From an uncultured Myxococcales bacterium (GTDB lineage Bacteria > Myxococcota > B64-G9): a stretch of DNA of 64,000 bases. The notes beneath the pieces are model-generated. The model worked only from the letters and a program-made list of their open reading frames with translations. It made no database searches and was not told the DNA's origin. Position numbers and translations under genes: made by a program. Positions within the stretch are counted from its first letter, which is position 1; each line of letters begins with the position of its first letter. Location: NCBI GenBank assembly GCA_964454005.1, contig CAYVQE010000010.1:4277-68276 (forward strand). Reading direction: 5' to 3'. Below, piece by piece: positions 11,719 to 61,082 of the stretch.

Positions 11719-11941
11719 CAACTCGGTCAGGGTCTTCAATCTCCACCTCCGCTGCAGCGCCAACGCATCTCGAGCGGCCCTCGTCCCCACCGGCGCGGAC
11801 TCCCCCCGGGGCCAGCCACCGCTAGACCCCGGCCCGGGCCCAAACCATCAGGCCGAACAAGAACACGTCAGCGCCTCTCAGTCTACAGGCTGTAAGAACC
11901 TCCACTGGTTTTCCAGATTGAATGTCATTTTGTAAAATCAT

Positions 11942-13177
11942 TTGCCAAAATGCGGGTCCGAAGGCTACCCTGAGGGCGTGGTTGGAACCAGCGCTCAGTT
12001 CGCCGAGTTGCACCAACTCGCCCTCGAAAAGGGGCGCCGCTATCCGCGAGCGCGTTTCCTGCTCGACGCGATCCGGGCGACCGCCGGCCGGGCCTTTATC
12101 GGCATCGTGGGCCCCCGGGGTGTGGGCAAGACCGTGATGCTGCAGCAGCTCGCCCGCAGCGACGAGCGGGCGTTCTACCTCTCGGCCGACACCCTCGACG
12201 GCGAAGACCTGTTCGATGTAGTCAGGCAACTCGTGGCCGACTTCGAAATCGAGCGGCTGCTGGTCGATGAGATCCACTACGCGCCGGATTACGCCGCAGC
12301 CATCAAGCGCCTGTTCGACTTTCTCGATGTGCACGTGATCTTCACCAGCTCGGTGTCGCTATCGCTGCTCGACGCGGCCGAGGATCTGTCCCGGCGGGTG
12401 CAGCTGCGCACGCTGCCGCCCTTCTCCTTTCTGGAGTACCTGGCCTTCACCCAGAGCCGGGCGCTGCCGCCGCTCACGCTGGAGGATCTCTGGCAGCGGC
12501 GCTGGTCCCGCGAGCACCTGCTCGCCGCCGCGCACTTCGATCGCTACCTGCAGGGCGGCCTGATGCCCTTCGCCCTGGAGGAGCCCGACGTGCTCACCCT
12601 GCTGGCGCGCATCCGCGACCGGATTCTCACCCGCGACATCCCGGCCGTGGCGCGCTTGCTCACCGACGAGATCGGCCGTATCGAACGCCTGCTTCGCTTC
12701 GTCGGTCGAGCCGAGGTGGACGGGATCAACTACTCCTCGCTGTCGCGCAACCTCGGCATCACCAAGTACAAGGCCGAGGCTTATGTGGCCCTGCTGGAGC
12801 GGGCCTTCGTGCTCGCTCGGGTGCTGCCCGCGGGCACCAACGTGCTGCGCGAACCCAAGGTGCTCATGCGCCTGCCCTACCGCTTGCTCTACCGGGAACT
12901 GTACGACGCCATCGGCGGGTTGCGCGAGGACTTCGCGGTCGAGATGCTGCAAACCAGCGGCCTGACCTGCGACTATCTCAAATCGACCCGCGGCGCCAAG
13001 ACGCCGGACTATCTGGTCCGCACGGACGAAGGTGCGCTGGTGGTCGAAGTCGGTGGCAAGGGCAAGGGGCGCAGCCAGTTCAAGGGCGTCAGCGTCGAAC
13101 GCAAGCTCGTGTTCGCCCACGGCGAGCGCAAAGACGGCCCATTCCGCCCGCTGCACCTGCTCGGGTTCCTCCGTTAG
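11942..13177 (+). CDS. AAA+ ATPase of the AAA_14/DUF4143 type
   Basis: Walker A GPRGVGKT and Walker B LLVDEIHY. C-terminal region typical of DUF4143 ATP-binding proteins. Start uncertain (ATG 11942 or GTG about 11978). Confidence 0.85.
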   Translation: MPKCGSEGYPEGVVGTSAQFAELHQLALEKGRRYPRARFLLDAIRATAGRAFIGIVGPRGVGKTVMLQQLARSDERAFYLSADTLDGEDLFDVVRQLVADFEIERLLVDEIHYAPDYAAAIKRLFDFLDVHVIFTSSVSLSLLDAAEDLSRRVQLRTLPPFSFLEYLAFTQSRALPPLTLEDLWQRRWSREHLLAAAHFDRYLQGGLMPFALEEPDVLTLLARIRDRILTRDIPAVARLLTDEIGRIERLLRFVGRAEVDGINYSSLSRNLGITKYKAEAYVALLERAFVLARVLPAGTNVLREPKVLMRLPYRLLYRELYDAIGGLREDFAVEMLQTSGLTCDYLKSTRGAKTPDYLVRTDEGALVVEVGGKGKGRSQFKGVSVERKLVFAHGERKDGPFRPLHLLGFLR

Positions 13178-13184
13178 CCCGAAG

Positions 13185-16220: not shown

Positions 16221-17494
16221 GGGTTCTCTCCATCCCCGCCCGTCTTGGCATCGCCAGCCCGGCGCGACAGCTTCAGCGCCCGCCGCTCGAGTTCGGCCTC
16301 GACTGCCTCCAGCTCGACCCCGGCCCGGGCCAGGGCCACCAGGGCGAAGTAGAACACGTCGGCCGCCTCCCAGGCCACCGCCGCCTCACCCTCGGCCGCG
16401 GCCAGCTCGCCGGCCTCCTCCAGCAACTTGGCCCGCAGCAGCTCGGGGTCATCGAGCAGGCGCCGGGTATAGGAGCCGACCGGCGCCCGCTCGGCGCGCG
16501 CCACCAGCCTGCGGGCCAACGCCGGCAGGCCGCGGCCCGGGCCCCAGCAGCTGCGGCTGCCCAGGTGGCAGAAGCCGCCGCCGGCCTGGCGCACCCGAAA
16601 GCGCAGCGCGTCGCGGTCGCAGTCGGCGTCGACCGCCAGCAGCCGCTGGCTGGCCCCCGAGGTCTGGCCCTTGATCCACAGCCCGCGCGAGCGCGAATGG
16701 TAGACGCCCTGGCGCCGCTCCAGGGCCGCGGTCAGGCTCTCCAGGTCCGACCAGGCCAGGCCCAGGGCCTGATCGTGCTCGTCGACCACCACCGTTGCCC
16801 ACAGCCCGTCGGGCCGGTCGGAGCGCAGCGGCGCGGCGAAGGCCGCGGCCAGCGGCAGCCTGCCGGTGTAGATGGCCATGCCCACCTGGGCGTCGGCGCC
16901 CAGCCGATCCAGCTCGGCGATCTCGGCCGCGGTGGTGATGCCGCCGGCCACGGTCACCCGGGCCGCGCCGGCGGCTTCGACCAGCGCGGCCACCTGCTCC
17001 AGCGCAGTGCCGCCCAGCCGACCCTCGCGCTCGACGAAGGTGACCAGAAAGCCGCCCACCAGGCCCTCCAGCTCACGCATGCGCTCGAGCACACCGCGGC
17101 CGGTACCCCGCTGCCAGCCCTCGACCACCACCTCGCCATCGCGGGCGTCCAGCGCCGCGATCACCCGCTCGGGCGGCAGCCCGCGCAGCAGCGCCGGCTC
17201 GGCGGCGGTGCCCAGGATGACGGCGCGGGCGCCGGCATCCAGCCAGCGCCGGGCGCTGTCGCGGTCGCGGATGCCACCGCCGACGCGGCACGGCGCCCGA
17301 GCCAGCAGGTCTTCCATCACGGCCCGGTTGTGGCCGCGGCCCAGCGCCGCGTCCAGGTCGATCACCGCCACCTCGCCCACCAAGCCGAAACCCTCGGCCA
17401 GCGGCCGCGGATCGCCGGCGTCCAGCGCCTTGTCGCACCCGCCCACCAGCTGCACCGCCGAGCCGTCCTGCAGGTCGATCGAGGGCACGATCAT
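16217..17494 (-). CDS. hisA-hisIE: fusion of ProFAR isomerase (HisA-like) with phosphoribosyl-AMP cyclohydrolase / phosphoribosyl-ATP pyrophosphatase (HisI-HisE)
   Basis: N-terminal part [19 protein letters not shown]...VIDLDAALG...VGGGIR...AGGITT (TIM-barrel HisA type). Middle part [16 protein letters not shown]...[13 protein letters not shown]...[10 protein letters not shown] (HisI). C-terminal part [25 protein letters not shown]...[13 protein letters not shown] (HisE). Internal ATG at 17494 overlaps the hisF stop. Confidence 0.9.
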
Positions 17495-42322: not shown

Positions 42323-42571
42323 ATGAGGACCACCATTCGACTCGACGATGCCCTGCTGGCCGCGGCCAAGCAGGAGGCGGCCCGCTCGGGCCGGACTTTG
42401 ACCGCGGTCATCGAGGATGCGCTGCGCCAGGCCCTGGCGCAGCGGGATGGCGGGCGCGGCGAGCCGGTGGAGCTGATCACCTGCGGCGGCCGCGGGTTGC
42501 AGCCCGGGGTGGATCTGGACGACTCGGCCGCCTTGCTCGACCTCATGGACGGCGGCGGTGATCCTGCCTGA
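42323..42571 (+). CDS. vapB: type II antitoxin, ribbon-helix-helix VapB-like
   Basis: MRTTIRLDDALLAAAKQEAARSGRTLTAVIEDALRQAL is a typical RHH antitoxin N-terminus. Overlaps the vapC start. Confidence 0.8.
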   Translation: MRTTIRLDDALLAAAKQEAARSGRTLTAVIEDALRQALAQRDGGRGEPVELITCGGRGLQPGVDLDDSAALLDLMDGGGDPA

Positions 42572-42986
42572 CGTCAACGTGCTGGTCTACGCCCACCGGC
42601 GGGACGCGCCCGATCATCGGGCCTACCGCGACTGGCTGGCGGCCGTGGTCAACGGCGATCAGGCCTACGGCCTGGCCGACCTGGTGCTCAGCGGGCTGTT
42701 GCGGGTGATCACCCACCCGCGCGTGTTCGATCCGCCCACCCCGCTGGCCCAGGCCCTGGCCTTCGCCGACCAGCTCCGCCTGCGGCCGCACTGCGTGCCG
42801 ATCGCGCCCGGACCGCGCCACTGGGAAATCTTCCTGTCGCTGTGTCGGGATAGCGCGGCCCGCGGCAACCTGGTGCCGGACACCTACCTGGCCGCCCTGG
42901 CCATCGAGTCCGGCAGCCAGTGGATCACCACCGACCGCGACTTCAGCCGCTTCCCCGGCCTGCGCTGGCGCCATCCGCTGGCCTAG
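42558..42986 (+). CDS. vapC: type II toxin, PIN-domain ribonuclease VapC
   Basis: ILPDVNVLVYAH..., ...YLAALAIESGSQWITTDRDFSRFPGL (PIN acidic residues D5, D/E about 40, D about 98, D about 117). Confidence 0.9.
   Translation: MILPDVNVLVYAHRRDAPDHRAYRDWLAAVVNGDQAYGLADLVLSGLLRVITHPRVFDPPTPLAQALAFADQLRLRPHCVPIAPGPRHWEIFLSLCRDSAARGNLVPDTYLAALAIESGSQWITTDRDFSRFPGLRWRHPLA
42590..42698 (+). repeat. copy 1 (inside intact vapC) of a 109-bp direct repeat
   Basis: Identical to 45440..45548 except one base (g/t at 42684/45534). Confidence 0.9.
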
Positions 42987-43217: not shown

Positions 43218-45122
43218 CTAGAGATCCGGCTGGGCGAACAGGCCTCCGGAGCCGGCGACCACGATTTGTCCTTCGGGCGTAAAAAATACCGCTCGTAGCG
43301 TGTAGGCCTCGGGGATCCACTCCGGCTGCCAGCGCTCCCCATCGTAGCGCACCACCGCGCCGCCGTAACCCACGGCCACCACCCTGTCTCCGGCCGTGCC
43401 GCCGACGGCCCGAAGCCCATCGTCGCAGCCCGAATCCATGTGGACCCATCGATCGCCGTCGTAGTGCAGGATCAAGCCCCTGTTGCCGACAGCGAAGAGG
43501 TCCTCGGGACCGCTGCCCCATACCGCGTCGAGCCTGCCTTCGACCTCATGGACCACGCTCCACTGCTCACCGTCGAAGTGCCACACCTCGCTGCGCATGC
43601 CCGGATTGTTGTATTTGTGTATGTGGCCAACGGCGTAGGCCTCGGTCTCGCTCGCGGCCCAGACGCCGTGCAGCGAGACAGCGCTGGCGGCACGCAGCAC
43701 CTGCAGCGTGCCGTCCCGGTAACGGCCGACGTCGCCGTGGTCCCCAACCAGTAGCACGTCGTCGGGGGCCAGGGGCCAGGCATCGAAGTATTCCGCGTTT
43801 TCATGCCGCTGCTCGGCGAAGGCCCCGTCGGCGAAGGTGTAGAAGGTATCCTCGACGACGGCGGTGAAGCGTTCCGCCGACTCCCCCCAGGCCGTGTCCA
43901 CCTCGTGATCGAACTCCATCAGCGGCGAGACGGTCGCGCCGTCGTCCAGGAAGATCCCCTGCTCGCGGGTGAACAGCAGCAGCCCATCGGCGTCGAGATC
44001 GACCAGCTCGAACACATCGTGTTCGAGGCGCTTGTTCCACACCTTGCAGTCCGCGAAAGGGATCTCGATGGTCTCACTGTGGGCGCCGCCGCGCACCGCG
44101 GCGCGGACACGGCAGGCGCCCTGGCCGGTGGAGTCGATCCGAACCTCGGGCTCGTAGCGCTGCCCGGCGACCTCGCCGTCGCCCAGCACCACGTTCAGAT
44201 CGTCTTGTCCATCCAGGACGAGAAACCGACAGGCCTCCGGCGTCTCGATGTGCAGCTCGGTGAAGAACCAGCCGTTGCAAAACTCGTCTCGTTCGCCAAC
44301 CGCCGGTCGGGCGCTGAGCACGGTGCGGCAACTCTCGGCTTCGTAGCGCAACCCCAGGTCGTCGACCGCATCGGGGGTGTACACGTGAAAGTCCAACGCC
44401 ACCTCCGGGTCTGCGGGGGAGCTGACCTCGATGACGGTCTCGCGCTCGGGAAAATCGACCGCGAAGTGAGCGAAGTCCTTCTTGTCGGGGGTCAGCCCGC
44501 CCAGCTCGAAGGGGTAGTAGTCATAGCCCACCAGGCGTTGATCGTCGTGGTACAGCTCGAAATAGAAGCGCTGGGGCCAGCCGCCGATCACGTCCACGCG
44601 TCCCGGTCCGTCTACGGCGGGATGCTTTCCGTCACACCGCGGGGTCAGCTTAACCCGGTTGGTCTCGGCCACCGTGTAGGTGGCGCTCAGCGCATAGTCA
44701 CCGGTCGAGGCTTCGATCTCGGCATCCAGCCGCGCGCTGCCCGCGGCCAGCGCCTCGAGGGTCACGATGCCGTGGGTGCCCAGCGCCCGGATCTCGTCTA
44801 CCGCGAGCACGCCGGGGTCGCTGCTGGTGGCCGAAGGAATGTCTTCGACCTCGGAGAACTCGCAGCTCTGGACACCGATGTCGATGCCGATCGAGGTCGG
44901 GATCTTCCCCTGGCCCGAAGCGGCGATCTCGGTGGCCGCGTCGCTGCAGGTGTCGACCACCGCCACGTCATAGAACGCGCCGGCGGCGATCACGCCTTCG
45001 CGGGAAATAAACTCGACCCCGGTCTCGCCCGAGCCGTGGAGCCATATGCAGCCGGCGAACAGACCCAGGCCCAAGACCAGTCCGCCGGCTCCACCCACCC
45101 AGGCCAGCTTGCGATGGCGCAT
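43218..45122 (-). CDS. lipoprotein with a C-terminal beta-propeller-like repeat region
   Basis: ATG 45122 after GGGAGG. MRHRKLAWVGGAGGLVLGLGLFAGC lipobox. C-terminal repeats of the type L.AVWG....D.FAVG..G.I..YDG..W. Confidence 0.75.
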   Translation of the reverse strand: MRHRKLAWVGGAGGLVLGLGLFAGCIWLHGSGETGVEFISREGVIAAGAFYDVAVVDTCSDAATEIAASGQGKIPTSIGIDIGVQSCEFSEVEDIPSATSSDPGVLAVDEIRALGTHGIVTLEALAAGSARLDAEIEASTGDYALSATYTVAETNRVKLTPRCDGKHPAVDGPGRVDVIGGWPQRFYFELYHDDQRLVGYDYYPFELGGLTPDKKDFAHFAVDFPERETVIEVSSPADPEVALDFHVYTPDAVDDLGLRYEAESCRTVLSARPAVGERDEFCNGWFFTELHIETPEACRFLVLDGQDDLNVVLGDGEVAGQRYEPEVRIDSTGQGACRVRAAVRGGAHSETIEIPFADCKVWNKRLEHDVFELVDLDADGLLLFTREQGIFLDDGATVSPLMEFDHEVDTAWGESAERFTAVVEDTFYTFADGAFAEQRHENAEYFDAWPLAPDDVLLVGDHGDVGRYRDGTLQVLRAASAVSLHGVWAASETEAYAVGHIHKYNNPGMRSEVWHFDGEQWSVVHEVEGRLDAVWGSGPEDLFAVGNRGLILHYDGDRWVHMDSGCDDGLRAVGGTAGDRVVAVGYGGAVVRYDGERWQPEWIPEAYTLRAVFFTPEGQIVVAGSGGLFAQPDL

Positions 45123-45424
45123 GGCGACCTCCCGTCCAGGGGCTCTTTCCTGTTTCTCCACCGCTATGACGATCAGGCTAACATACTTTTGCGGGCCGGT
45201 CCCCATTCCCCGGCCCGAATCCCCTGACCCCTCGGAGGACCCCTCGGCGAGGACCACTCAGGTGCTGCCACCCAGATCGGCTCCTCCGAATCTTTTCCCC
45301 TGCCCCCGGATCCGCCTCCCGGAGTCGATCGAGAGGTGGCTGCAGCCGCAGCCGCCGGCGATGGCGGTGGCAGCTTCGCCGCGCGGGCCGTCCAGCAGCT
45401 CCAGCGTCTCGTCGCGCTAGCGGC

Positions 45425-45548
45425 CCACGTCGCCGTGGGCGCCCACCGGCGGGACGCGCCCGATCATCGGGCCTACCGCGACTGGCTGGCGGCCGTGGTC
45501 AACGGCGATCAGGCCTACGGCCTGGCCGACCTGTTGCTCAGCGGGCTG
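45425..45548 (+). pseudogene. decayed 5' fragment of a second vapC copy (codons about 5 to 47)
   Basis: 109 bp are 99% identical to vapC 42590..42698. The preceding about 15 nt are still recognisably related with indels. There is no start codon and no rest of the gene. Confidence 0.85.
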
Positions 45549-45848: not shown

Positions 45849-45926
45849 TGACAGTGGAAAATCGGCCTCCACGGGGGCGGGTCGAGCATATTGGGACAAA
45901 CGCGAGATGACGTCAGGGGAAAACCG

Positions 45927-48860
45927 ATGGGCAAGACAGATCTGCACCTGTATCTGATTATCGCCGCGGTCAGCATCTGGTCGGCGCCGGTGGCCGCCGA
46001 CATGTACCTCGACCAGCCCGAGGGCGGCGAGGTCTTCATCAGCGGCGAGACCATGAGCATCAGCTGGCTGACGGTGCCCGGCGACGAACCCAACGGCGAC
46101 TGGGTGTCGCTGTATTACCTCTGGGCGCCCGACAACAATCGCGAGCTGATCACTTCGATCGGCGATCCGGGAGCGGTCCACGAAGGTTCCTACGAATGGA
46201 CGGTCCCGACCGTACAGGAGACGTCCTACCTGTCGATCGAGGTCTGCGGCGATACCGATGGCCAATCCTGCATCTCCTCGGATCGCAGCCTCAACATGAC
46301 CATCCTGCCCTCGGCGGACACACCGTCGATCTTTCTCAGCGACCCCCGACCGACCGAGGAGGAGTTGCTCAGCCTGCAGGGTGGATCGACCTACACCGTG
46401 CGCTGGGAGGTCACCGGCTGCGATGCGAGCACCACGGACGTGCCCATGATGGTTCGCTTCAGCCCGAGCGGCATGCCGGGCGACTGGACCGATCTGGGCA
46501 CCGCCCTGCCCTGCCAGGACGACGGCTTCGTCTGGGACGTGCCGGACATCGAGACCCAGAACGCCCACCTGCGCCTGAACTGGGGGGAACTGAGCTGGTC
46601 GGGCCACAACACACCCTTTGCCATCACCGCCGATCCAGACCCCAACCACCCCCCGGTGGCCGATGCCGGGCCCGACCAGACCGTCGCCGAGCGCAGCCTG
46701 GTCACCCTGGACGGCACCGGCAGCAGCGATCCCGATGGCGATTATTTCCACTCCCACTGGGAACGAGTCGACAGCACCGTGGGCTATGAGATCGAGATCG
46801 GCAGCGAGTTCATGCGCGAAGCCTCGTTCATCGCACCCGACATCGACGTCGAACAGGTCACCTTCGTCTTCCGCCTGACCGTCCGGGACACCGGGGACCT
46901 GGAGAGCTATGACCTGGTTCAGGTCACCGTCACAGCCGCCGAGCCGGCCGTCGAGAGCGTCGAACCGCTGCAGGGCTGGTACAAGACGCCGGTGACGGTG
47001 ACGGGCATCGACCTGCGCAGCTGTGAAATCTACCTGGACGATGTGCTGGCGGCCACCGTACCGGATCGGCCCGACGCCGACACCGGGATGACCTTTCCCC
47101 TGCCCGAACTGGAGCCGGGACCGTTCGAGCTGCGGCTGGAGTGCCCGGACGGCGAGACGGTGACCTACGGGGAGACGTTCAACGTCCAGCGGGTGCCCTA
47201 CCAGTGGGACTGGGGCCTGAGCTTCCGCAACCCAGGCGGATACCTGATGGCCTACCGGGATCTGGAGAACTGCTTCGGCCGCGCCGCCACCCACATCGGG
47301 CTGTGCTGCGAGTGGGACGGCGTCTTTTGCACCAGGGCCTGCCACGACCCGCTGATGCAGCTGCTCTTCGACTACTATGGCCGGGAGCTGGCCTGGGGCG
47401 GCAGCTGCTGGGGCATGTCGGCCCTCAGCGCCAAGTATGCGATGGGGACGCTCGAGCTGGAAGCGGACCGCGACCTGCGCGACTACGGCTTCGTTCTCGA
47501 ACCCACCGAGAGCAGCATGGCCACCGCCATCAAGCAGCATCACCTCAGCCAGGTCTCGGCCGAGTCGATCGGATACCTGCTCGACCACCTGGGCGATGAC
47601 CCGCTCGACATCGCGGCCCGCATCGACGCCGACACCCGGGAAGGCCGCCACGGCGTGATCAGCATCAACGATATGGAACGGGGCATCTCGCCATTGGATT
47701 TCGTGGGCCACGCCCTGGTACCCGACCGGGTGGTGGAGATCTCGGAAACCGAGTACCGCATCTACGTCTACGATCCCAACGTCGAGGAGTTCTCGGTCTG
47801 CCGCGATCTAAACGACTTCGACCAGTTCGAGCGCGTCACCAGCCAGCAGGAGTATCCCTACATCCTGGTCGAGCAAAGACCCAGCGGCACGCGCGCCTGG
47901 TCTCTCGAGATGGTCAACGGCTCCGTCTGGCGCGGCGACGACCGCTACCGGATCACCATCAACGACGAGGACGTCAACTTCTATGGGCTGACCTACTACC
48001 CGCCGCATGTGGTTCGCGGGCCCTACACCGCTCCGCTCAGCCTCAATGGCATCCTGATGATCCTCAGCTCCGGAGCCGACGCAGGCATCCGCGACGACCA
48101 GAACCGGCTGACCGGCGTCGACGCCGACGGCGAATTTCACCTCGACATTCCGGACGCCGTGCCGGTGCCGGCGCTGGCCGCCGGCGACGAGGGCCCGGGC
48201 GAGATGTTTCTGGTCCCGGACGGGGCCTACTCGCTCGCGGTGCGCGGCCGCCAAGCGGGCAGCTACACCTTCAGCAGCATCGCTCGCGGACGCATGCTGG
48301 CCATCCGCGACGCGGGCATGAGCGAGAGCACCGCCGACGAGCTGGACATCGACCCAGACCGGGGCAGCTTGCGGCTGCAGACCGAAGATGCCTTGAAGGA
48401 CTACCAGGCGCTGATCGTGGAACCGATCGAGCGCGACGGCGAGCACTTGCAGCGCACCTTCGAGCTGCTGGCCGCTCGCATCGGCGCCGGCGAAAGCGTG
48501 ACCCTGGCCACCAGCGACGATCGCGGCACCTTGACAATCGACAACGAAAGCGATCGCGACATGCACTTCGACATCCGCCTGATCCAGGCCGCTGTGGAGC
48601 CAGAGTCCGAGCCGCCGGATCTGGCCGATCACAGCCTGACCGTGACGGACGTGACGGTCCCGGCCGGAAAGAGCTTGCGATTGGCCCCCAGCGACTGGGA
48701 TCAGCTCGGCCAGGCCAGCGCCGAACTCCAGGTGGCCGACGCCGGCGGCGAGAGCGGCTGCGCCTGCTCCAGCCACGGTATGCCGGCCGGCCCCTGGCTG
48801 TGGCTGCTCATCGTGCTCGGTCTGGGCCTGCGACCGCGCGCTGCGCGCCGGCGCCGCTGA
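45927..48860 (+). CDS. large secreted multidomain protein: PKD/REJ-like and IPT-like Ig domains, papain-like Cys/His motif region, MYXO-CTERM tail
   Basis: Signal peptide MGKTDLHLYLIIAAVSIWSAPVAA. PVADAGPDQTV...LDGTGSSDPDGD. WGGSCWGMSALS and FVGHALVP. C-terminus GESGCACSSHGMPAGPWLWLLIVLGLGLRPRAARRRR. Confidence 0.85.
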   Translation: MGKTDLHLYLIIAAVSIWSAPVAADMYLDQPEGGEVFISGETMSISWLTVPGDEPNGDWVSLYYLWAPDNNRELITSIGDPGAVHEGSYEWTVPTVQETSYLSIEVCGDTDGQSCISSDRSLNMTILPSADTPSIFLSDPRPTEEELLSLQGGSTYTVRWEVTGCDASTTDVPMMVRFSPSGMPGDWTDLGTALPCQDDGFVWDVPDIETQNAHLRLNWGELSWSGHNTPFAITADPDPNHPPVADAGPDQTVAERSLVTLDGTGSSDPDGDYFHSHWERVDSTVGYEIEIGSEFMREASFIAPDIDVEQVTFVFRLTVRDTGDLESYDLVQVTVTAAEPAVESVEPLQGWYKTPVTVTGIDLRSCEIYLDDVLAATVPDRPDADTGMTFPLPELEPGPFELRLECPDGETVTYGETFNVQRVPYQWDWGLSFRNPGGYLMAYRDLENCFGRAATHIGLCCEWDGVFCTRACHDPLMQLLFDYYGRELAWGGSCWGMSALSAKYAMGTLELEADRDLRDYGFVLEPTESSMATAIKQHHLSQVSAESIGYLLDHLGDDPLDIAARIDADTREGRHGVISINDMERGISPLDFVGHALVPDRVVEISETEYRIYVYDPNVEEFSVCRDLNDFDQFERVTSQQEYPYILVEQRPSGTRAWSLEMVNGSVWRGDDRYRITINDEDVNFYGLTYYPPHVVRGPYTAPLSLNGILMILSSGADAGIRDDQNRLTGVDADGEFHLDIPDAVPVPALAAGDEGPGEMFLVPDGAYSLAVRGRQAGSYTFSSIARGRMLAIRDAGMSESTADELDIDPDRGSLRLQTEDALKDYQALIVEPIERDGEHLQRTFELLAARIGAGESVTLATSDDRGTLTIDNESDRDMHFDIRLIQAAVEPESEPPDLADHSLTVTDVTVPAGKSLRLAPSDWDQLGQASAELQVADAGGESGCACSSHGMPAGPWLWLLIVLGLGLRPRAARRRR

Positions 48861-53072: not shown

Positions 53073-53088
53073 TGGCATACCGAATGCA
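53073..53088 (+). promoter_or_regulatory. sigma-54 (-24/-12) promoter candidate TGGCATaccgaATGCA
   Basis: GG and GC elements have the canonical spacing of TGGCACG-N4-TTGCW. About 50 nt upstream of ATG 53138, whose RBS is GAAGGAGGAAG. Confidence 0.5.
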
Positions 53089-53137
53089 TACCGCCGGCGC
53101 AGCCGATGATCGCGAATCCGCGAAGGAGGAAGCTGCC

Positions 53138-55945
53138 ATGCGACGTGGAATGCCCCTGATACTGGCCGGGCTGTGCCTGCTGCTCGCGGCCGCAGCCTAC
53201 TGGCTGTGGGCCAGCGACACCCCGGCCCCGGTGGAGCCGGCCGCCGTGGCCCCCGCGGCAAAGCCGGACAGCGATCCCGAAGCGCCGGCCGCAGCGGTAA
53301 AGCCGAAGCCGCGGCGGCGGCCGGCCCGGGCGGTGCTGCCCGAGCCGCGCCAGCAGGCCGAGCCCGAGGGCAGGCTGCGGCTGGAGGGCCAGGTGCTCGA
53401 CCGCGGCGACCTGCCGGTGGCCGACGCCCGGGTGGCCATCGACACCGAGCCGCAGCGCACCACGCGCACCGGCCGCGACGGCAGCTTCCACTTCGACCGG
53501 GCGATCGGCCGGCGCTACCGGCTGACCGCGCGCAAGGCCGAGCGGGTGGGCGGGCCGGTGCAGCACCAGCTCAGCGCGGAGTCGGATCCGGTCATCCTGC
53601 GCCTGCGCCTCGGCGCGGTGCTGGCGGTGCAGGTGGTCGCGGCCGGCAGCGGCGAGCCGGTGGCCGGGGCGGTGGTCGAGCTGCGCGGCGACCAGCGGCT
53701 GGTGACCAGCAGCGGGGCCGAGGGCCGGGCGCGGTTCGTCGGCGTGGCCGGCGGCGGCGCCGTGCTGCACGCGGCCGCGGCCGGCCACGCACCGGCCCAG
53801 CAGCTGGTGGCCGTGCCCGACGGGGCGGTGGACGAGCCGGTGCAGGTGCGCATCGCCCTCGAGCGCGGCGCGCCGGTGCGCGGCCGGGTGGTGGACAGCC
53901 AGGGTGCTGCAGTGGCCGGCGCCAGGGTGGTGGCGGTCGACACCGGCGCCCTGCTCGATCTGCAGGACGCGGAGCACGACGGGGCGGCCAGCGACGCCGA
54001 GGGTCGCTTCGAGCTGCCGGCGGTGGCCGCCGGCAGCTACCGGGCGCTGGCCACCGCCGCGGGCCACCCGCGCTCGAGCTCCGCGCCCTTCAGCAGCGAC
54101 GGCCAGCGGCCGGTGACCGGAATCGAGGTCGTGCTGGCCGATGGCGGCACCATCGCCGGCCGGGTGGTCGGCCGCGGCGGCCGGCCGGCTGCCTGGGCCC
54201 GGGTGCGCGTCGGGCCGGCCGGCGATGCCATCCGCCCGGGCGTGCTCGGCGGCCTGGGCCGGCGTACGGCCACCGCCGACGCCGACGGCGCCTTCCGCAT
54301 CGAGGGCCTCGAGCGCACCGAGCTCGAGGTGCTGGCGGTGGGCGAGCGGGCCAGCAGCGAGCCGCTGCCCGTCGATCTGCGCACAAGCCCCACGGCCGAG
54401 GATCTGGAGCTGCGGCTGGTGGTCGACGGCCGCATCGCCGGTCGCGTGGTCGACGGCCGCGGCCAGCCGGTGGCCGAGGTGACCGTCAGCGCCGCGGCCG
54501 ACATCTGGGCCCAGGGCCTCGACAGCGCGGCCAGCTTGCGCGGCCGCGCCAGCGACCTGACCGACGGCGGCGGCAACTTCGCGCTCGAGGGCCTGCCCGA
54601 GGGCCGCTACCGGCTGCGGGCCAGCCGTTCGGCCGGCGCCTTCGTCCAGCACTTCCGGCCCGGGGTGGCTGCCCGCACCGGCGACGAGGACGTGGAGCTG
54701 GTGCTCGAGCGCGAGGGGGCCCTGCGCGGCCGGGTGGTGTTCGCCGGCGGCGGCAGCCCGCGGCGCTTCAGCGTGGCCGTGGGCGGTCCGCCGGGCGTGC
54801 CCTTCGCCAGCGGCGACGGCGGCTTCGAGCTGCCCGAGGTGCCGCCGGGCGAGTACACCATCAGCGTCCACGGCGATGCCTTCGCCGACGTCGATCTCGA
54901 CGGCGTCGAGGTGCAGGCCGAGCAGGTGACCGACCTGGGCACCATCGAGGTCCAGCCCGGGCGCACCATCGCCGGCCGGGTGGTCGACGGCCGGGGCGAG
55001 CCGGTGGCCGAGGCCAGCGTGATGCTGGCCAACCGCCTGATCGGCGACGGCAGCCGGGCGGCCACCGAGCTGGGCGCGGCAGCCGCCCAACAGATGGGTC
55101 TGCGGCGCACGCGCAGCGGACCCGACGGCCGCTTCCGCATCGGCGGCATCGACGATCAGTCCCAGATCGCGGTGGCCGAACACGAGCAGCTGGGCCGCTC
55201 GCTGCCGGTGCAGGTGCCGGCCGGGGCGGCCACCCCGGAGCTGGAGCTGGTGATCGAGGGCTTCGCCAGCCTGTCCGGCCGCATCAGCAGCGGCGGCCAG
55301 CCGGCGGCCGGGGCCCTGGTCTCGGCCAGCGCCACCGGCCAGGCCGAGCAGGCGGTGGTGGTCCACGCCGGCGACGACGGCCGCTACCGCATCGACAAGC
55401 TGCCCGCCGGCGAGCACCGCGTGTCGGCCAATCTGGTCGACAAGACCAGCCTGGGCGGCCACGGCGAGGCGCGCATGATCACGCTGCGCGCCGGCGAGCA
55501 GCAGCAACTGGACATCGACATCCCCAAGGGCCAGGTGGAGCTGACCGTGCAGGTGCGCGGCGTCGAGGGTGCGCCCATCGACTCCGCCCAGATCTCCCTG
55601 ATCCCCGGCCAGGTCGACATCGCGGTCGCCGCCGAGCTGAACCAGATGGCCGCCTCCAGCGGCGGCAGCCTGATCAGCGGCTTCTGGCTGCCCCAGAAGG
55701 CGGCCGTGCTGGCCGACCTCCAGCCCGGCGGCTACAGCCTGTGCGTCATCCCCATCAACGGCGACATGAACGACCCGGCCTTCCTCATGAAGCTGCAAAA
55801 GCACCGGCACAGTTTGCAGGTGCACTGCCAGCCGCTGCAGATCGCGGCCAGCCCGGTCGAGCAGAGCCACACCGCGGTGGTCCCGCCCATGGCGCCCTTC
55901 CCCGAAGAACCGGCCCCGACCGACGGCGGCAGCGCCGCGCCCTGA
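53138..55945 (+). CDS. membrane-anchored protein made of tandem carboxypeptidase-regulatory-like (CarboxypepD_reg) domains
   Basis: N-terminal TM MPLILAGLCLLLAAAAYWLW. At least eight repeats of the G.VVD..G.PVA.A.V pattern (GRVVDSQGAAVAGARV, GRVVDGRGQPVAEVTV, GRVVDGRGEPVAEASV and others). Confidence 0.85.
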   Translation: MRRGMPLILAGLCLLLAAAAYWLWASDTPAPVEPAAVAPAAKPDSDPEAPAAAVKPKPRRRPARAVLPEPRQQAEPEGRLRLEGQVLDRGDLPVADARVAIDTEPQRTTRTGRDGSFHFDRAIGRRYRLTARKAERVGGPVQHQLSAESDPVILRLRLGAVLAVQVVAAGSGEPVAGAVVELRGDQRLVTSSGAEGRARFVGVAGGGAVLHAAAAGHAPAQQLVAVPDGAVDEPVQVRIALERGAPVRGRVVDSQGAAVAGARVVAVDTGALLDLQDAEHDGAASDAEGRFELPAVAAGSYRALATAAGHPRSSSAPFSSDGQRPVTGIEVVLADGGTIAGRVVGRGGRPAAWARVRVGPAGDAIRPGVLGGLGRRTATADADGAFRIEGLERTELEVLAVGERASSEPLPVDLRTSPTAEDLELRLVVDGRIAGRVVDGRGQPVAEVTVSAAADIWAQGLDSAASLRGRASDLTDGGGNFALEGLPEGRYRLRASRSAGAFVQHFRPGVAARTGDEDVELVLEREGALRGRVVFAGGGSPRRFSVAVGGPPGVPFASGDGGFELPEVPPGEYTISVHGDAFADVDLDGVEVQAEQVTDLGTIEVQPGRTIAGRVVDGRGEPVAEASVMLANRLIGDGSRAATELGAAAAQQMGLRRTRSGPDGRFRIGGIDDQSQIAVAEHEQLGRSLPVQVPAGAATPELELVIEGFASLSGRISSGGQPAAGALVSASATGQAEQAVVVHAGDDGRYRIDKLPAGEHRVSANLVDKTSLGGHGEARMITLRAGEQQQLDIDIPKGQVELTVQVRGVEGAPIDSAQISLIPGQVDIAVAAELNQMAASSGGSLISGFWLPQKAAVLADLQPGGYSLCVIPINGDMNDPAFLMKLQKHRHSLQVHCQPLQIAASPVEQSHTAVVPPMAPFPEEPAPTDGGSAAP

Positions 55946-56218
55946 TACGCACCGGGGTCAGCCGGCTGGCCGCGTGCGCCGGGCAGACGTTCGGGCTCCG
56001 ACGTCTACGCGCCGGACAGCTGGTGCGGCGGGGCACCGCCGGTGGGCAGGCCCGCATCCTCGACGATCTCCTCGACGGCCAGCAGGCTCAGCGTCTCGCC
56101 GTGGAGTTCCACCAGGTTGGTCGAGACCCGCAGCCGGTGCTCGCCGTGCGCGTCGCCGCCGCCGAAGGTGGCGCTGGTCTCGACCTGGCGCTGGGCCTGG
56201 CCGCTTTGGAAGGTGCGC
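55858..56218. repeat. copy 1 of a 361-bp direct repeat (3' end of the CarboxypepD_reg gene + spacer + 3' part of a PAS gene)
   Basis: Aligned by eye to 59639..59999 at an offset of 3781 nt. 9 mismatches, all in the last 165 bp; the first 198 bp are identical. Confidence 0.95.
56005..56218 (-). pseudogene. 3' fragment (about 71 codons) of a PAS-domain gene, duplicate of 59786..59999
   Basis: Translates ...VETSATFGGGDAHGEHRLRVSTNLVELHGETLSLLAVEEIVEDAGLPTGGAPPHQLSGA-stop. Homology ends abruptly at 56218. Confidence 0.8.
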
Positions 56219-56249
56219 CTCCGGGGCAGCGCCGCTGGAGCCGCGCGGC

Positions 56250-56438
56250 CAGGTATTGCTGGGCTTCGTCATGGGGGCGTTGCGGCGGCCGGACGCGATG
56301 GACCCGGCCGGCCTGGAGGCGCTGCGCGCCCAGGGCTTCGCCGACGCGGACGTGATCGAGGCCTGCTTTTTCGACGCCGACCTGATCGGCAAGGCCCGTT
56401 TGGTCAGGGCCTTCGGGGTCGAGTCACTGCGGGCCTGA
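56250..56438 (+). pseudogene. possible 3' fragment of a carboxymuconolactone decarboxylase/AhpD-like gene
   Basis: ...LLGFVMGALRRPDAMDPAGLEALRAQGFADADVIEACFFDADLIGKARLVRAFGVE resembles CMD-family C-termini. There is no plausible N-terminal part upstream. Confidence 0.35.
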
Positions 56439-56692
56439 GCGTCAGGACCGGCCCCAAAAAATTCGACACTTGGCACGGCTCCGAAAACGCAGACGGAGCA
56501 ACTGTGTCTGATTATTCGATACACCATGCCCGGTTTCCGGACACCCCCGCTTGAAAACGCCACACCCCAAAACCTCAACTTTTCAGATGGTTACTTAGAA
56601 GGCCAGCTTTGGCCCGTCGGTTGCGTTGGGCCGGACCCAGCGATTACGCGGTCGACGAGGTCGCCAACCTAACCCTTTTGAAGGAGGGAAGC

Positions 56693-57625
56693 ATGTCTCT
56701 GTACAAGTTCAAGATGCTGGCCACTCTGTTGTGCTTCCCGTTCATCTTCGCAACCCAGACCTCGGCCAGCGCCGCCGAGCGCATGACATTGGAAGACTTG
56801 GCTGCCGCCAAGCGCGAGTTGGATCGCGAGTCCAACGCCCGGGCCATCGCTAAGGCATTCCATGACTGTCTCCACGATCCCGAGTTGGCCGCGATCATCA
56901 CCTCGGCCTTCGAGACCCAGATCTACTCCAACCGGCCGCTGGCTTTCGTCAACGGCTACTGGGCCAAGCCCATCAATCTGTCGGCCATCTACGCCGATAG
57001 GGACATCAACCTCGTCCTACAGCAACTCTTGTCCGACAACCCCAGCGCCCTGCAGGCCCTGGCCGACGCAGTGGCCGCCGTCGAGGACGGCCAGATCATT
57101 GACCCCGCAGTGGGCGCGGGCCTGGTTTTCATCCCCCATGATGTGGCTGCGGATGAGGCCATGACGGACCTGATCGGACTGACGGAGTCAATCGCTGGCG
57201 GCGCTTTCCTGGATGACTTGCAGGGAATCAGGGAGATGGGCGCCAACGACTTCATCGTCGGGCTCATCATTGGTGTTGGCGCTTCTCTGATAGCCGGAGC
57301 CATCCTCGATAGCTGCGAGGACGACCCGACAGATCCTCATGCTGATATCGATGGGGATGGGAAGGAGAACTGGATCGACGGCGATGATGACGGTGATGGC
57401 ACGGCTGATCATGAGGACGGCTATCAATACGACGATGAGCAGAGCATCACCCATTGCCCTCCGCCCGGGTTGTGCTTTTCGACCAACGGCCTGGTTGGCT
57501 CGTCGGCCGAGGCCGTGATGGATGTGACCACCCAGACATGGGTCGACGTCATGGAGACGCAGGATATCATGTCGATCGAGCCTCGTTCTGGCGTCGGAAT
57601 GCTCCTGGCATTCCCTGGGCTTTGA
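56693..57625 (+). CDS. secreted protein with an acidic calcium-binding-like DxDxDG tract (lower G+C)
   Basis: GAAGGAGGGAA RBS. Signal peptide MSLYKFKMLATLLCFPFIFATQTSASA. DIDGDGKENWIDGDDDGDGTADHED. 52-57% G+C in the two lines I counted. Confidence 0.75.
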   Translation: MSLYKFKMLATLLCFPFIFATQTSASAAERMTLEDLAAAKRELDRESNARAIAKAFHDCLHDPELAAIITSAFETQIYSNRPLAFVNGYWAKPINLSAIYADRDINLVLQQLLSDNPSALQALADAVAAVEDGQIIDPAVGAGLVFIPHDVAADEAMTDLIGLTESIAGGAFLDDLQGIREMGANDFIVGLIIGVGASLIAGAILDSCEDDPTDPHADIDGDGKENWIDGDDDGDGTADHEDGYQYDDEQSITHCPPPGLCFSTNGLVGSSAEAVMDVTTQTWVDVMETQDIMSIEPRSGVGMLLAFPGL

Positions 57626-59559
57626 TGGTCAAACCACAGTTTCAGCTGGTCAGCCGGGCGATGTCCGGCTGGCCGGTTGTTTGCTTGTTTGGGTGTTTGG
57701 GCTGTGTATCATCTCAGTCTGTTGAATCCGGGGGCAAAATGATCCTTCGCGAGAAAAAGATCGCTGGACAGGTGCTGGGCTTGATCGTCGGGGTTGGTAT
57801 CGGGCTCTTGCTGCTCGACTTGTTCGTTCTGAGCGACGCAGGGGGCGGGCTGGAGTTCATCGAGCGGCCCTTTGTCGACGGTGTCGATGCTTCCTACGCC
57901 GGCAAGTATCAGGACCACCCGGAGGTGAAGCGGCTGTTGGCGCTGGCCGGCGACCTGCGGCGGGCGGCGCTGCAGCGGGTGGTGCGCAGGACGGGATTGG
58001 CGGTGATCGATGCGGACGCCATCGTGCTGTCCTTTCGCGACGCCTCGGACGAGTTCGTCCACAAGGCCGTCTCGCGGCGCGTGTCGTCACCGGATGGCGT
58101 GCTGCAGTTGTGCGAGATCGGGCTGGAGCGCTTCGTAACCGGCTGCCTGGACATCGAGCGGACGCTGACCCACGAGTTCAGCCACGCCGTGATGCGCCAG
58201 GCGATGAAGGATCGTTACGGCGAGCTGCCGCGCTGGTTCCGCGAGGGGGCCGCGGTGTGGACGGCCGAGCAACTGGACGCCAAGGTGCGGCTGGAGGTCG
58301 CGCGCCGGATCATGCGGGGCAAGGACCCCGCATCCGCCCTGGACGGGCTGGCCGGGGAGCGGATCGATGGGACCAACTACCTCGACGAGGGGTTCGTATT
58401 TGCCTTGCTGGAGCGGCGACACGGCATGGCGGGGGTGCAGCGGGTGCTCGAGCGGGTCGTGGTGGCCGGCGAGGATCACAACGCGGCGCTGGAGTCGGTG
58501 ACCGGGGTGCCCGTGGCGGAGTTCATCACGCGCTCGCAGCGCCACGGTGCGGCCTACCTCGAGACGATCCTGCGCGACAGCGGCTCGGACACCTTCGCCG
58601 CGGCCGTGGCCCGGCGAAAGGCGGACGATGATGCTGCCGGCATCCGCCACCTGCGCAGCCTGTTGCAGCGGCATCCGGATTCCTTCCTCGTCCAACCCGC
58701 CCTTTTCCTGCTGGCCACCCTGGTCTACGACGCCCACGCACCGGAAGCGACCCTGGCCGGGCTGGATGCGCTGATCGCCGAGGGCACCGACTACCCCTGG
58801 CTGGCCACGAAAGCCGCCTACATCCGCGCTAGGAGATTGCTCATGGCCGGGCATTACGGCAGGGCGGTGCAGGCCTTCGAGCAGTTCATCCGGGACTACG
58901 CCTGGAACGGCCCCGCGCGGATGGCCGATGCCAGGTGCAACCTGGCCGCGGCCTGGATCGGAGCCGGCCGGCCCGGCCGCGCCGTGGAGCTCATCCGCCC
59001 CTCGCTGCGGCATCTGCAGCCCGCTCAGGCCGAAAACACCCGAGCGATGCTGCGCGATGCTCTGCGCATGCTGGACGGAGACGGGGCCGCTGCGCGGGCG
59101 GACGCAGGCGACGGGGCGAGCTGGCGCGACTTCGAGGCCCGGGCAGCCTATGCGCGGATGGGCACCTATGCCGACTACGAGCGTTTGGCCGCGCAGTGCC
59201 GGGCCAACGCCGATTGCGTCGTCGTTACCCTGCCCGGCTGCCGCCCCGGCCCCAGCGGGCGCATCGACCGGCAGGCCCGGGCGGCGGTGAACAGGGAGGT
59301 GAAAAGCCGCTATCTGGCCATGCTGCGGGATCGCGCGCGGGCTGCGTGCGCCGGCGTCGTCTGTCCGCCGCGCGCGGCGCCCGGCCAGCCGGTGCGGACC
59401 GGGCCCGAGGCGACCTCCTCGCCCGAAGCACCCCTTCGAGCCGTATGCGCCCAGGGGCGTTGCGTGCTCACCGGCCGGACGGCTGAGAGGTCTGCTGAGC
59501 CGACCTGCTCGCGCCATCGCCCGAGCGCGTCCCCGACGTCAACTACATTTCCCCATTAA
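57625..59559 (+). CDS. putative zinc metalloprotease (HExxH) with a TPR-like C-terminal region
   Basis: ATG overlaps the upstream TGA (TGATG). N-terminal hydrophobic/lipobox-like LFGCLGC and a TM segment. TLTHEFSHAVMRQ (HExxH). Helical-repeat-like C-terminal half. Confidence 0.7.
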   Translation: MVKPQFQLVSRAMSGWPVVCLFGCLGCVSSQSVESGGKMILREKKIAGQVLGLIVGVGIGLLLLDLFVLSDAGGGLEFIERPFVDGVDASYAGKYQDHPEVKRLLALAGDLRRAALQRVVRRTGLAVIDADAIVLSFRDASDEFVHKAVSRRVSSPDGVLQLCEIGLERFVTGCLDIERTLTHEFSHAVMRQAMKDRYGELPRWFREGAAVWTAEQLDAKVRLEVARRIMRGKDPASALDGLAGERIDGTNYLDEGFVFALLERRHGMAGVQRVLERVVVAGEDHNAALESVTGVPVAEFITRSQRHGAAYLETILRDSGSDTFAAAVARRKADDDAAGIRHLRSLLQRHPDSFLVQPALFLLATLVYDAHAPEATLAGLDALIAEGTDYPWLATKAAYIRARRLLMAGHYGRAVQAFEQFIRDYAWNGPARMADARCNLAAAWIGAGRPGRAVELIRPSLRHLQPAQAENTRAMLRDALRMLDGDGAAARADAGDGASWRDFEARAAYARMGTYADYERLAAQCRANADCVVVTLPGCRPGPSGRIDRQARAAVNREVKSRYLAMLRDRARAACAGVVCPPRAAPGQPVRTGPEATSSPEAPLRAVCAQGRCVLTGRTAERSAEPTCSRHRPSASPTSTTFPH

Positions 59560-59637
59560 CGACAACTACACTTCCCCAGAAGTGGGTGAAGAAACGACAA
59601 CTACACTTCCCCAGAAGTGGGTGAAGAGTGGGTGAAG
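59558..59637. repeat. perfect 35-bp tandem duplication (aacgacaactacacttccccagaagtgggtgaaga x2) plus a partial third unit, abutting repeat copy 2
   Basis: Units at 59558..59592 and 59593..59627, then gtgggtgaag. A degenerate caactacatttcccca lies at 59540..59555. Confidence 0.9.
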
Positions 59638-59638
59638 C

Positions 59639-59999
59639 CGAGCAGAGCCACACCGCGGTGGTCCCGCCCATGGCGCCCTTCCCCGAAGAACCGGCCCCGA
59701 CCGACGGCGGCAGCGCCGCGCCCTGATACGCACCGGGGTCAGCCGGCTGGCCGCGTGCGCCGGGCAGACGTTCGGGCTCCGACGTCTACGCGCCGGACAG
59801 CTGGTGCGGCGGGGCACCGCCGGTGGGCAGGCCCGCCTCCTCGACGATCTCCTCGACGGCCAGCAGGCTCAGCGTCTCGCCGTGGAGCTCCACCAGGTTG
59901 GTCGAGACCCGCAGCCGGCGCTCGCCGTGCGCTTCGCCGCCGCCGAAGGTGGCCGTGGTCTCGACCTGTTGCTGGGCCTGGCCGCTGTGGAAGGTGCGC
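59639..59999. repeat. copy 2 of the 361-bp direct repeat
   Basis: See copy 1. Here the PAS gene is intact. Only the last 29 codons of a CarboxypepD_reg-type gene are present (59639..59726, ending ...FPEEPAPTDGGSAAP-stop). Confidence 0.95.
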
Positions 60000-60361
60000 T
60001 CGATGGTGCGCCGCAGTCCGCACTGGCCGCAGGGCTCGCTGTGGCCGCAGCCGTCCGGGTGCAGCTGGGCGTTGGCGCAGCCGATGGCCACGCCGGTCAC
60101 CTGATCCAGCATCTGGCGCGGCACCTGTCCGGCCAGTCCCGCCGCCAGGCGGTTGATTTTCAGCACCCGGCGCTCGGCATCGACCAGGATCAGGGCCACC
60201 GGGGCGTGCTCGAACAAAAGCGCCGCATCACCGGCCGGCCGGGCGGAGTCTTCGGGCTGCTCCAGGGCCAGCTGCGGGTGGCGTTGCCGCAGCGAGCGCG
60301 AGACGACCTCCAACTCCTCGGGATCGCCGCGCAGGACCAAACTGGTGCTCTTGCCGTCCAT
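59786..60361 (-). CDS. PAS-domain protein with a Cys/His-rich insert
   Basis: LLFEHAPVALILVDAERRVLKINRLAAGLAG (PAS core). GCANAQLHPDGCGHSEPCGQCGLRRT. Start at ATG 60361 or upstream TTG 60403. Confidence 0.8.
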   Translation of the reverse strand: MDGKSTSLVLRGDPEELEVVSRSLRQRHPQLALEQPEDSARPAGDAALLFEHAPVALILVDAERRVLKINRLAAGLAGQVPRQMLDQVTGVAIGCANAQLHPDGCGHSEPCGQCGLRRTIERTFHSGQAQQQVETTATFGGGEAHGERRLRVSTNLVELHGETLSLLAVEEIVEEAGLPTGGAPPHQLSGA

Positions 60362-60452
60362 CGGACCTCCTGGATGGCTGATGGCGATACCATGATAGCG
60401 CAACCGGTGCCGGCCGTAAAAGGAGACAATCCCGATTCGCCGCAGCGCGCGT

Positions 60453-60854
60453 TCAAGCGCGCAGCTGATCTAGGCAGTCTTCCAGGATGTGCGGGGTGAC
60501 GGGCTTGGGCAGGAAGCGTTCGACCAGCCCGTCTTGCAGGTGGTCGTCGATGGCGGGCACCGGACCGCCGGACATCAGCACCCTGCACATGTCCGGGCAC
60601 CTGCGGCGGACCTGATCGAGCAACCACAGGCCGTCGTGACCGGGCATGGAGTAATCCGAGACGATCACGCCGAAACGTTCTCGACCCAGCCAGGCGAGTG
60701 CCGCGGCAGCGTCATTGGCTCTGTACGGTGTGCGACCCAGGTGCGTCAGGCAGCGCCCGAGCAGATCGAGCACGGCAGGCTCGTCGTCGACCAGCAGCAC
60801 CCGTCGGCCGGCGCTCGGGTCGACACTGTGGGGCGGACCTCCATCTGGGATCAC
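60453..60854 (-). CDS. single-domain response regulator (CheY-like receiver)
   Basis: VLLVDDEP, VIVSDYSMPGHDG (phospho-acceptor Asp), RVLMSG, KP. Confidence 0.9.
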   Translation of the reverse strand: MIPDGGPPHSVDPSAGRRVLLVDDEPAVLDLLGRCLTHLGRTPYRANDAAAALAWLGRERFGVIVSDYSMPGHDGLWLLDQVRRRCPDMCRVLMSGGPVPAIDDHLQDGLVERFLPKPVTPHILEDCLDQLRA

Positions 60855-60895
60855 GCCTAGCGCCCTCCGCTGGTGGAGCCGAAGTGAACGATAAA

Positions 60896-60915
60896 GAGGG
60901 CCATAAATGGCCCTC
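60896..60915 (-). terminator. rho-independent terminator candidate downstream of the TolB-like gene
   Basis: Minus-strand RNA gagggcca-uuua-uggcccuc followed by UUUAUCGUU. Confidence 0.55.
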
Positions 60916-61082
60916 CGTCCCCACGAGCAGACCTATTGTGTGGCCCACTTCCCCCGTAGTAACCAGACAAGCACAACCCGCGAGCCCGCCGGGTGCTCCG
61001 AGCAGACGAGCCAGCGTCCCATTCCCACCTCCGACAATGCCGGCGGATTGCAGGTGGTTCGCTTTTTCTCGGGCGCTGTCGT

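Follow-up and report, generated by a model that had tools for sequence, protein, structure and literature searches.

Between a gene for a CarboxypepD_reg-repeat protein and a convergent gene for a PAS-like protein, the contig CAYVQE010000010.1 of an uncultured Myxococcales bacterium carries 3,420 bp of additional DNA, bracketed by two 361-bp direct copies of the very junction at which the two genes meet. We analysed this locus in a 64-kb stretch of the contig (the window, to which coordinates refer unless another sequence is named) and compared it with related public sequences. The insert, which contains a gene for an acidic secreted protein and a gene for an HExxH/TPR protein, most likely represents a lineage-specific gene gain that was brought about by homologous recombination of the host and not by an element-encoded recombinase.

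Self-comparison and alignment of the window bore out the initial annotation, which had described positions 55858–56218 and 59639–59999 as 361-bp direct repeats (period 3781) with 9 mismatches and an identical first 198 bp. All of these mismatches, located at positions 56056, 56107, 56138, 56152, 56173, 56174, 56188, 56189, and 56206 of the left copy, are confined to the last 163 bp of the repeat, and identity is lost sharply at either side of it. The composition of the repeat was also as had been described: the last 29 codons of the CarboxypepD_reg gene including its stop codon, a 59-nt spacer (55946–56004), and the last 71 codons of the convergent PAS-like gene. At the left copy, the CarboxypepD_reg gene is whole (53084–55945, plus strand) and forms an intact open reading frame (ORF) of 953 amino acids with eight stretches that match Pfam family PF13620 (E = 4e-64). 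At the right copy, it is the PAS-like gene that is whole (59786–60361, minus strand); it encodes 191 amino acids from the ATG and matches PAS_4 with an E-value of 4e-4, below the cut-off. Inside each copy lies an orphan 3' fragment of the other gene, namely 71 codons of a distinct allele of the PAS-like gene on the left (56005–56218, minus strand) and 29 codons of the CarboxypepD_reg gene, without any difference from the functional copy, on the right (59639–59726, plus strand). The outer borders of the repeats are continuous with the native genes, the left copy being entered from the CarboxypepD_reg gene and the right copy running into the intact PAS-like gene. Both inner borders are novel joints: at 56218/56219 the left copy meets a fragment of an AhpD-like gene, and the joint at 59638/59639 shows a 1-nt microhomology and short tandem duplications. 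Since self-comparison of the 64-kb window revealed just one other direct repeat of at least 100 bp, the pair is not a matter of background or chance.

The two closest public relatives show what the locus looks like without the insert. One of them (L001), the sole genome match, is a metagenome-assembled genome of an uncultured Myxococcales bacterium, and the other (L009), from Logan run SRR12689834, was found via the CarboxypepD_reg protein. Both are collinear with the window from 49.9 to 64 kb at 87–95% identity, the CarboxypepD_reg gene itself being collinear and 93% identical in both, and L009 encodes a full-length ortholog of the PAS-like protein with the same 191 amino acids. As expected for an insertion, each relative has one junction and no insert. 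The spacer between the two genes, about 195–200 nt in the relatives, has little similarity to the 59-nt spacer of the window. This 59-nt spacer and the variants at the 3' end of the CarboxypepD_reg gene are common to both copies in the window and absent from the relatives. The duplication is therefore recent and took place within the lineage of the window after its split from L001 and L009, and the incoming copy of the junction must have come from a very close relative and not from a foreign element that chanced to carry it.

The PAS side of the junction varies between strains. L001 lacks 304 bp of the PAS-like gene (60060–60363 in the window), and in the context of a more distant ortholog (L010, 54% identity) a PAS gene is missing altogether. 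L001 and L009 are 96.6% identical on the CarboxypepD_reg side of the PAS gene (L009 positions 3380–6865) and 85% identical on the response-regulator side (7170–12761), so the junction and the PAS gene mark a recombination breakpoint between strains, and recombination between diverged strains is active here. Exact-protein look-ups of the PAS, CarboxypepD_reg, HExxH, and acidic proteins of the window returned none on record.

Comparison with the relatives also allowed us to assign the differences between the two copies. The right copy agrees with L001 at nine of nine mismatch sites, which places all of the changes in the left copy. L001 and L009 themselves differ at five of these sites (hypergeometric P = 3e-5), and at three of the five the left copy has the base of L009. 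Seven codons of the left fragment are affected, by six conservative replacements and one synonymous change, with neither a stop codon nor a frameshift. Because five of the mismatches fall on polymorphic sites and the replacements are conservative and introduce no stop, the left PAS fragment is a separate allele, namely a natural allele of a functional gene that arrived joined to the insert. Decay of a pseudogene was considered as the source of the mismatches and rejected: the orphan CarboxypepD_reg fragment and the duplicated spacer, which are equally functionless, show zero changes, and five of the nine sites are population polymorphisms.

The insert begins with the 3' fragment of an AhpD/carboxymuconolactone decarboxylase-like (peroxidase-related) gene of about 65–72 codons (56220–56438, plus strand), joined head-on to the truncated PAS fragment. 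The assignment, already suggested by the initial annotation, is consistent with a weak match to TIGR01926 (profile positions 110–155 of 178; E = 3e-4, below the cut-off); no match was found in Pfam. It is followed by an intergenic stretch with 56.7% G+C (56439–56692), which carries a strong GGAGG ribosome-binding site ahead of the gene for the acidic secreted protein (56693–57625, plus strand; 310 amino acids; 60.2% G+C, with 77% at third codon positions). After this gene there is a terminator-like hairpin of 17 pairs (57643–57679), and then the HExxH/TPR gene (57739–59559, plus strand; 606 amino acids; 70.3% G+C). The insert ends in a repeat tail with 57% G+C (59541–59637), in which a 16-mer occurs three times, a 35-bp unit twice and an 11-bp unit twice. 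The 35-bp tandem repeat that had been noticed is indeed there, at 59558–59627 with 2.0 copies that are 100% identical, and the 11-bp tandem follows at 59616–59637. The tail motif occurs nowhere else in the window and the tail has no significant fold (z = -1.6).

The insert had been described as a segment of lower G+C content than its surroundings. This holds only for positions 56439–57950, which, with 59.5% G+C, have the lowest value of all 1.5-kb stretches in the 64-kb window and fall to 54% in 300-bp windows. The rest of the insert is not low: the AhpD-like fragment (72.7%) and positions 57951–59487 (71.8%) are host-like, compared with a window mean of 70.7%, and the insert as a whole has 65.8%. 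The insert is a mosaic of chromosomal pieces and not a plasmid- or phage-like element.

The acidic protein is predicted to have a signal peptide and contains the Asp-rich, calcium-binding-type motif recognised by the initial annotation, as well as a hydrophobic segment and a conserved THCPPPGxCFS motif. Its homologs are 48–61% identical and belong to a small, unannotated and uncharacterised family (61 clusters at E < 1e-3 among 1.8 billion representatives), and searches of Pfam, PDB sequences and PADLOC gave no match. An AlphaFold model built on an alignment of four sequences had a mean pLDDT of 44.6, too poor for a fold search. For the HExxH/TPR protein, which has a predicted N-terminal membrane anchor, the metalloprotease-like (MA-clan-like) character already proposed is in line with weak matches to Peptidase_MA_2 (E = 4e-4), flagellinolysin NF033876 (E = 2e-11) and MXAN_6640_HExxH (E = 1e-5), all below their cut-offs. 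A search of PDB sequences with this protein was empty, and PADLOC gave nothing for the cargo. A 1-nt deletion near the native stop of the HExxH gene (the out-of-frame TGA at 59484–59486) shifts the frame and lengthens the ORF to 59559, 25 codons into the repeat tail.

A homolog of the HExxH protein (P0002) is encoded by L002, with 79% amino acid and 82% DNA identity, and another by L012, with 81% DNA identity. The DNA similarity to L002 starts at 57671, inside the hairpin, and ends at the native stop near 59486; in L002 the gene has no acidic gene ahead of it. In L006, a contig with 59% G+C from another organism, an HExxH/TPR homolog with 41% identity lies after two acidic paralogs (8621–12244), and tandem acidic paralogs are found in L006 as well as in L007 (390–1674). 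The adjacency of acidic and HExxH/TPR genes in the unrelated L006 shows that they form a conserved gene pair, whose function is uncharacterised. Our guess is that the HExxH/TPR protein might be a zinc protease anchored in the membrane and the acidic protein its secreted, calcium-binding partner. Variation is seen at the C-terminus of the HExxH protein (59343–59559 in the window, 11555–11640 in L002, 2540–2654 in L012), with an in-frame deletion of about 100 nt in L002 as compared with the window and L012. Upstream of the HExxH homolog, positions 1–9800 of L002 and L003 are island-like and encode an N6_N4 methyltransferase, a UvrD/PD-(D/E)XK helicase-nuclease, RadC, an AraC-type regulator, and DUF5131.

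Scans of all insert ORFs against Pfam, NCBIfam and PADLOC agreed with the earlier observation that no integrase or transposase is present. Nor did the insert contain a replication gene, a remnant of an integrase or excisionase, or a terminal inverted repeat, and no tRNA or tmRNA was found in the 64-kb window. A plasmid or phage source, which the initial annotation had suggested checking, found no support: the insert had no blastn match in PLSDB or INPHARED, and a 30-mer of the repeat tail was absent from IMG/VR. The search of Rfam gave a sub-threshold chance match only. A tblastx comparison of the insert with the window gave noise only, with no second copy of the remainder of the insert in the window. 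In JGI metagenomes, a conserved 41-mer of the junction had no match and a protein-guided scan with the HExxH protein gave no confirmed locus.

Several known classes of rearrangement were considered and rejected. A site-specific integrative element (a prophage, an integrative and conjugative element (ICE) or an integrative and mobilisable element) would call for a tyrosine or serine recombinase and a short core site, neither of which is present, the repeat being 361 bp of local sequence. A transposon or insertion sequence (IS) with a giant target duplication was set aside as there is no transposase, no inverted repeats pair the ends of the insert, and the duplication is 361 bp long with 9 differences. 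A template and variable-repeat pair of a diversity-generating retroelement is at odds with the lack of a reverse transcriptase domain and with differences that include A/C, T/C, G/T, and GC/CG on either strand. The locus is not of the Rhs-type C-terminal displacement kind, since it has no Rhs/YD or toxin domains and the sequence encoded by the orphan fragments hardly differs from that of the retained ends. Simple tandem duplication was dismissed because just 361 of the 3,781 bp are repeated, and a dif/Xer-type element because the GC-rich repeat has no AT-rich core, as judged by eye with no formal scan.

Insertions with the same geometry were found at two other places. L012, a contig of JGI metagenome 3300037318, is 98% identical to L002 upstream and, when compared with it (L002 positions 11480–11870), has a 2.7-kb insert directly after the HExxH homolog. 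This insert comprises a 320-aa gene and a low-GC radical-SAM gene and is bracketed by 206-bp direct repeats (2457–2659 and 5363–5567; 91% identical) that correspond to the last 66 codons of the HExxH homolog; L002 to L005, which are 98% identical to L012 upstream, have a single copy of this repeat and no insert. In L002 itself, 179-bp direct repeats (13049–13225 and 13996–14172; 88% identical) flank a DUF302 gene, one being the 3' end of a 465-aa gene and the other an orphan duplicate of that end. The first ~105 nt of the repeats are near-identical and the remainder is diverged, the same mosaic pattern as in the repeats of the window. Three insertions of this kind in about 150 kb of related sequence are suggestive but anecdotal. 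One might extrapolate from them that myxobacteria have a recurrent, recombinase-free transfer of ~1–4 kb "homology cassettes" between conspecific chromosomes. Each cassette, flanked by duplicated sequence of a gene end, would be excised through homologous recombination, pass into a different cell and integrate there at the same end of the gene through one crossover; we consider this generalisation unlikely as it stands.

The simplest route to the arrangement in the window is a Campbell-type single crossover with a circle, as the initial annotation had proposed, and we give it somewhat less than an even chance. The donor would have been DNA of a closely related strain in which a copy of the CarboxypepD_reg/PAS junction was joined to 3.4 kb of other chromosomal DNA carrying the AhpD-like fragment, the acidic secreted-protein gene, the HExxH/TPR gene, and the repeat tail. 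If a non-replicating circle of 3,781 bp recombined with the chromosome by one reciprocal crossover within the identical 198 bp, both convergent genes would remain intact, orphan 3' fragments would come to lie at the inner sides of the repeats, and a two-gene module would be gained. What stands of the proposal is the single-crossover geometry, the relatives with a single junction, the foreign allele on the left, and the lack of a recombinase. On the other side, the insert is not plasmid- or phage-like, and an exchange with a linear donor gives an identical product. To the right of position 198 of the repeat, the left copy has the foreign allele and the right copy the L001-like one, whereas to the left of it the copies are identical, which hides any reciprocity. 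The geometry of the repeats, the lack of the insert in relatives, the foreign allele on the left, the mosaic cargo, and the absence of mobility genes are observed, whereas the involvement of a circle, the dependence on RecA, the route of DNA entry, and the function of the cargo are inferred.

Some observations weigh against a crossover with a circle. If the incoming copy was diverged, the two copies should differ to the left as well as to the right of the crossover, yet the 198-bp side is identical, which requires either a donor that was identical there or later gene conversion. The circle also needs two illegitimate joints (56218/56219 and 59638/59639), whose origin it leaves unexplained, and the donor arrangement, with a PAS fragment beside the AhpD-like fragment, was not found in the collections searched, including JGI metagenomes. 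Finally, the spacer of the relatives is unlike that of the window, so L001 and L009 do not represent the exact empty site.

The identical 198 bp are better accommodated by an unequal exchange between sister chromatids that was bridged by a linear donor, the homologous end of which recombined in the junction of one chromatid while its repeat-tail end was linked to position 55858 of the sister by an illegitimate joint. Both copies would then have the recipient's own sequence in the left 198 bp, and the right 163 bp would represent the donor and the recipient allele, which explains the identical-left, diverged-right pattern at least as well as the Campbell route and more naturally. The short tandem duplications and the 1-nt microhomology at the right joint resemble error-prone end joining, the near-identical-then-diverged pattern recurs in L002 and L012, and interchromatid integration that creates duplications has been shown experimentally in Streptococcus pneumoniae (PMC3784515). 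We nevertheless regard this route as rather unlikely: the documented cases are large tandem duplications between pre-existing repeats and not small insertions with an illegitimate joint, competence would have to be presumed in this organism, and a donor with the PAS gene already truncated and joined to the AhpD-like fragment is still required, as it is for the Campbell route. DNA that lies between direct repeats of 361 bp is readily deleted, and the single copy in L002 looks like a hybrid of the two L012 copies, which makes deletion plausible in that parallel case. It could be argued by the same logic that the repeat-flanked arrangement in the window is ancestral and that recombination between the repeats removed the insert from L001 and L009. 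This is improbable in view of the spacers, 59 nt in the window against about 195–200 nt in the relatives, which are not simple deletion products. The 198-bp block, moreover, is identical although the lineages differ by 5–13%, which points to a recent duplication, and the insert contains the lowest-GC 1.5 kb of the window.

The arrangement might also be an assembly artefact, in which a chromosome with one junction was joined in the contig to a separate molecule or strain variant that shared the 198-bp block. The source is probably metagenome-assembled and the identical block exceeds common k-mers. Logan contig L013 (run SRR7048225), which is 100% identical to positions 59858–61035 and also contains the exact protein of the native flanking gene beyond the PAS gene, a response-regulator receiver (60453–60854, minus strand; PF00072, E = 4e-15), ends exactly 30 nt to the left of the mismatch at 59888. 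With both variants of the copy in the reads, a unitig built with k = 31 would have to stop there, so the end point is a hint that both are present, although it says nothing of linkage. The novel joints, however, have no shared sequence that could cause a de Bruijn mis-join and so must exist physically; the sole alternative that uses both of them is a 3.78-kb circle, which would be nothing but the excised element and lacks a replication gene; and the same geometry is seen in independently assembled contigs. We consider an artefact quite improbable on these grounds. Slightly less probable still is a degenerate site-specific element, cis-mobilisable or microcin H47-like, that was moved in trans with the long imperfect repeats as its attachment sites. 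Integrase-less islands with such repeats that excise and integrate have been documented (PMC3191183), and the repeated 16-mers of the tail could be protein-binding sites. Against this, there were neither remnants of an integrase or excisionase nor a tRNA, a dif-like target or inverted repeats, the repeat is simply local chromosomal sequence of this lineage, the tail motif is found nowhere else in the window nor in viral contigs, and the repeats of the parallel cases in L012 and L002 are of unrelated sequence.

Other repeats were noted away from the insert. A 109-bp direct repeat with one mismatch (42590–42698 and 45440–45548, period 2850) has its left copy inside an intact PIN/vapC gene (42558–42986, plus strand; PF01850), just upstream of which lies a vapB-like antitoxin ORF. 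The right copy is an orphan piece from the interior of vapC (about codons 11–47) between a 679-aa gene (43218–45257, minus strand) and a 989-aa gene for a PKD-domain protein (45891–48860, plus strand). Because both borders of the orphan are novel, this repeat does not have a clean Campbell geometry. A partly palindromic element of ~150 bp (1955–2105) is 93% identical to positions 9036–9186 of L001, where it occupies a different genomic position, between the CarboxypepD_reg gene and a ceramidase gene. The element may represent a small mobile repeat. Self-comparison also detected a weak 62-bp direct repeat (11821–11881 and 16312–16373; 81% identical, period 4491).

When bacteria gain genes, elements that encode a recombinase of their own are usually held responsible. 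The locus described here provides a clean natural example in which the footprint indicates homologous recombination by the host and nothing else: the repeats are long and consist of local sequence, one of them carries a foreign allele, relatives have an empty site, and mobility genes are absent. Accessory genes can evidently enter between convergent genes without inactivating either. If the parallel cases are general, part of the variation in gene content among myxobacteria could arise in this way, and homology cassettes, if they exist, would be a regular source of it. Such inserts would escape island finders that rely on integrases, tRNAs or short attachment sites. The cargo, in turn, defines a conserved and uncharacterised pair of a secreted acidic protein and a membrane HExxH/TPR protein.

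Campbell-type single-crossover insertion of non-replicating circular DNA is the routine way of inserting plasmids in Myxococcus genetics. A circular intermediate has also been proposed for the displacement of rhs C-terminal regions (Jackson et al. 2009, PMC2935791). The locus in the window resembles both in that the repeats are the shared homology, the native genes remain intact with orphan 3' fragments facing inward, no recombinase of the element takes part, and the homology comes from a close relative. It differs from rhs in that there is no polymorphic-toxin locus and no exchange of a variable tip and immunity gene, and in that a convergent two-gene junction has been duplicated. In contrast to both models, the circle is one that we infer and have not observed, and half of the repeat is without divergence.

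The microcin H47 island of Escherichia coli (Azpiroz et al. 2011, PMC3191183) and cis-mobilisable elements share with the insert a small size, the lack of an integrase and long imperfect repeats with blocks of identity. The H47 island excises in a recA-deficient host and its attachment sites are widespread (PMC3191183), whereas the repeats in the window are just local junction sequence, with nothing to indicate site-specific recombination. Merodiploidy caused by transformation (Johnston et al. 2013, PMC3784515) and homology-facilitated illegitimate recombination offer the parallel of one homologous and one illegitimate end, a donor that bridges chromatids, and a resulting duplication. The documented merodiploid duplications, however, span 100–900 kb between IS-derived repeats (PMC3784515), as opposed to the 361 bp duplicated here around 3.4 kb of new DNA. 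Phages and ICEs that target the 3' ends of genes likewise keep their target genes intact by means of incoming 3' ends and are flanked by direct repeats, but they rely on an integrase and a short core or a tRNA, while the repeat in the window consists of hundreds of base pairs of ordinary sequence. The kind of event described here, rarely documented as it is, is already known from laboratory genetics and from the models of effector displacement in rhs and type VI secretion system loci.

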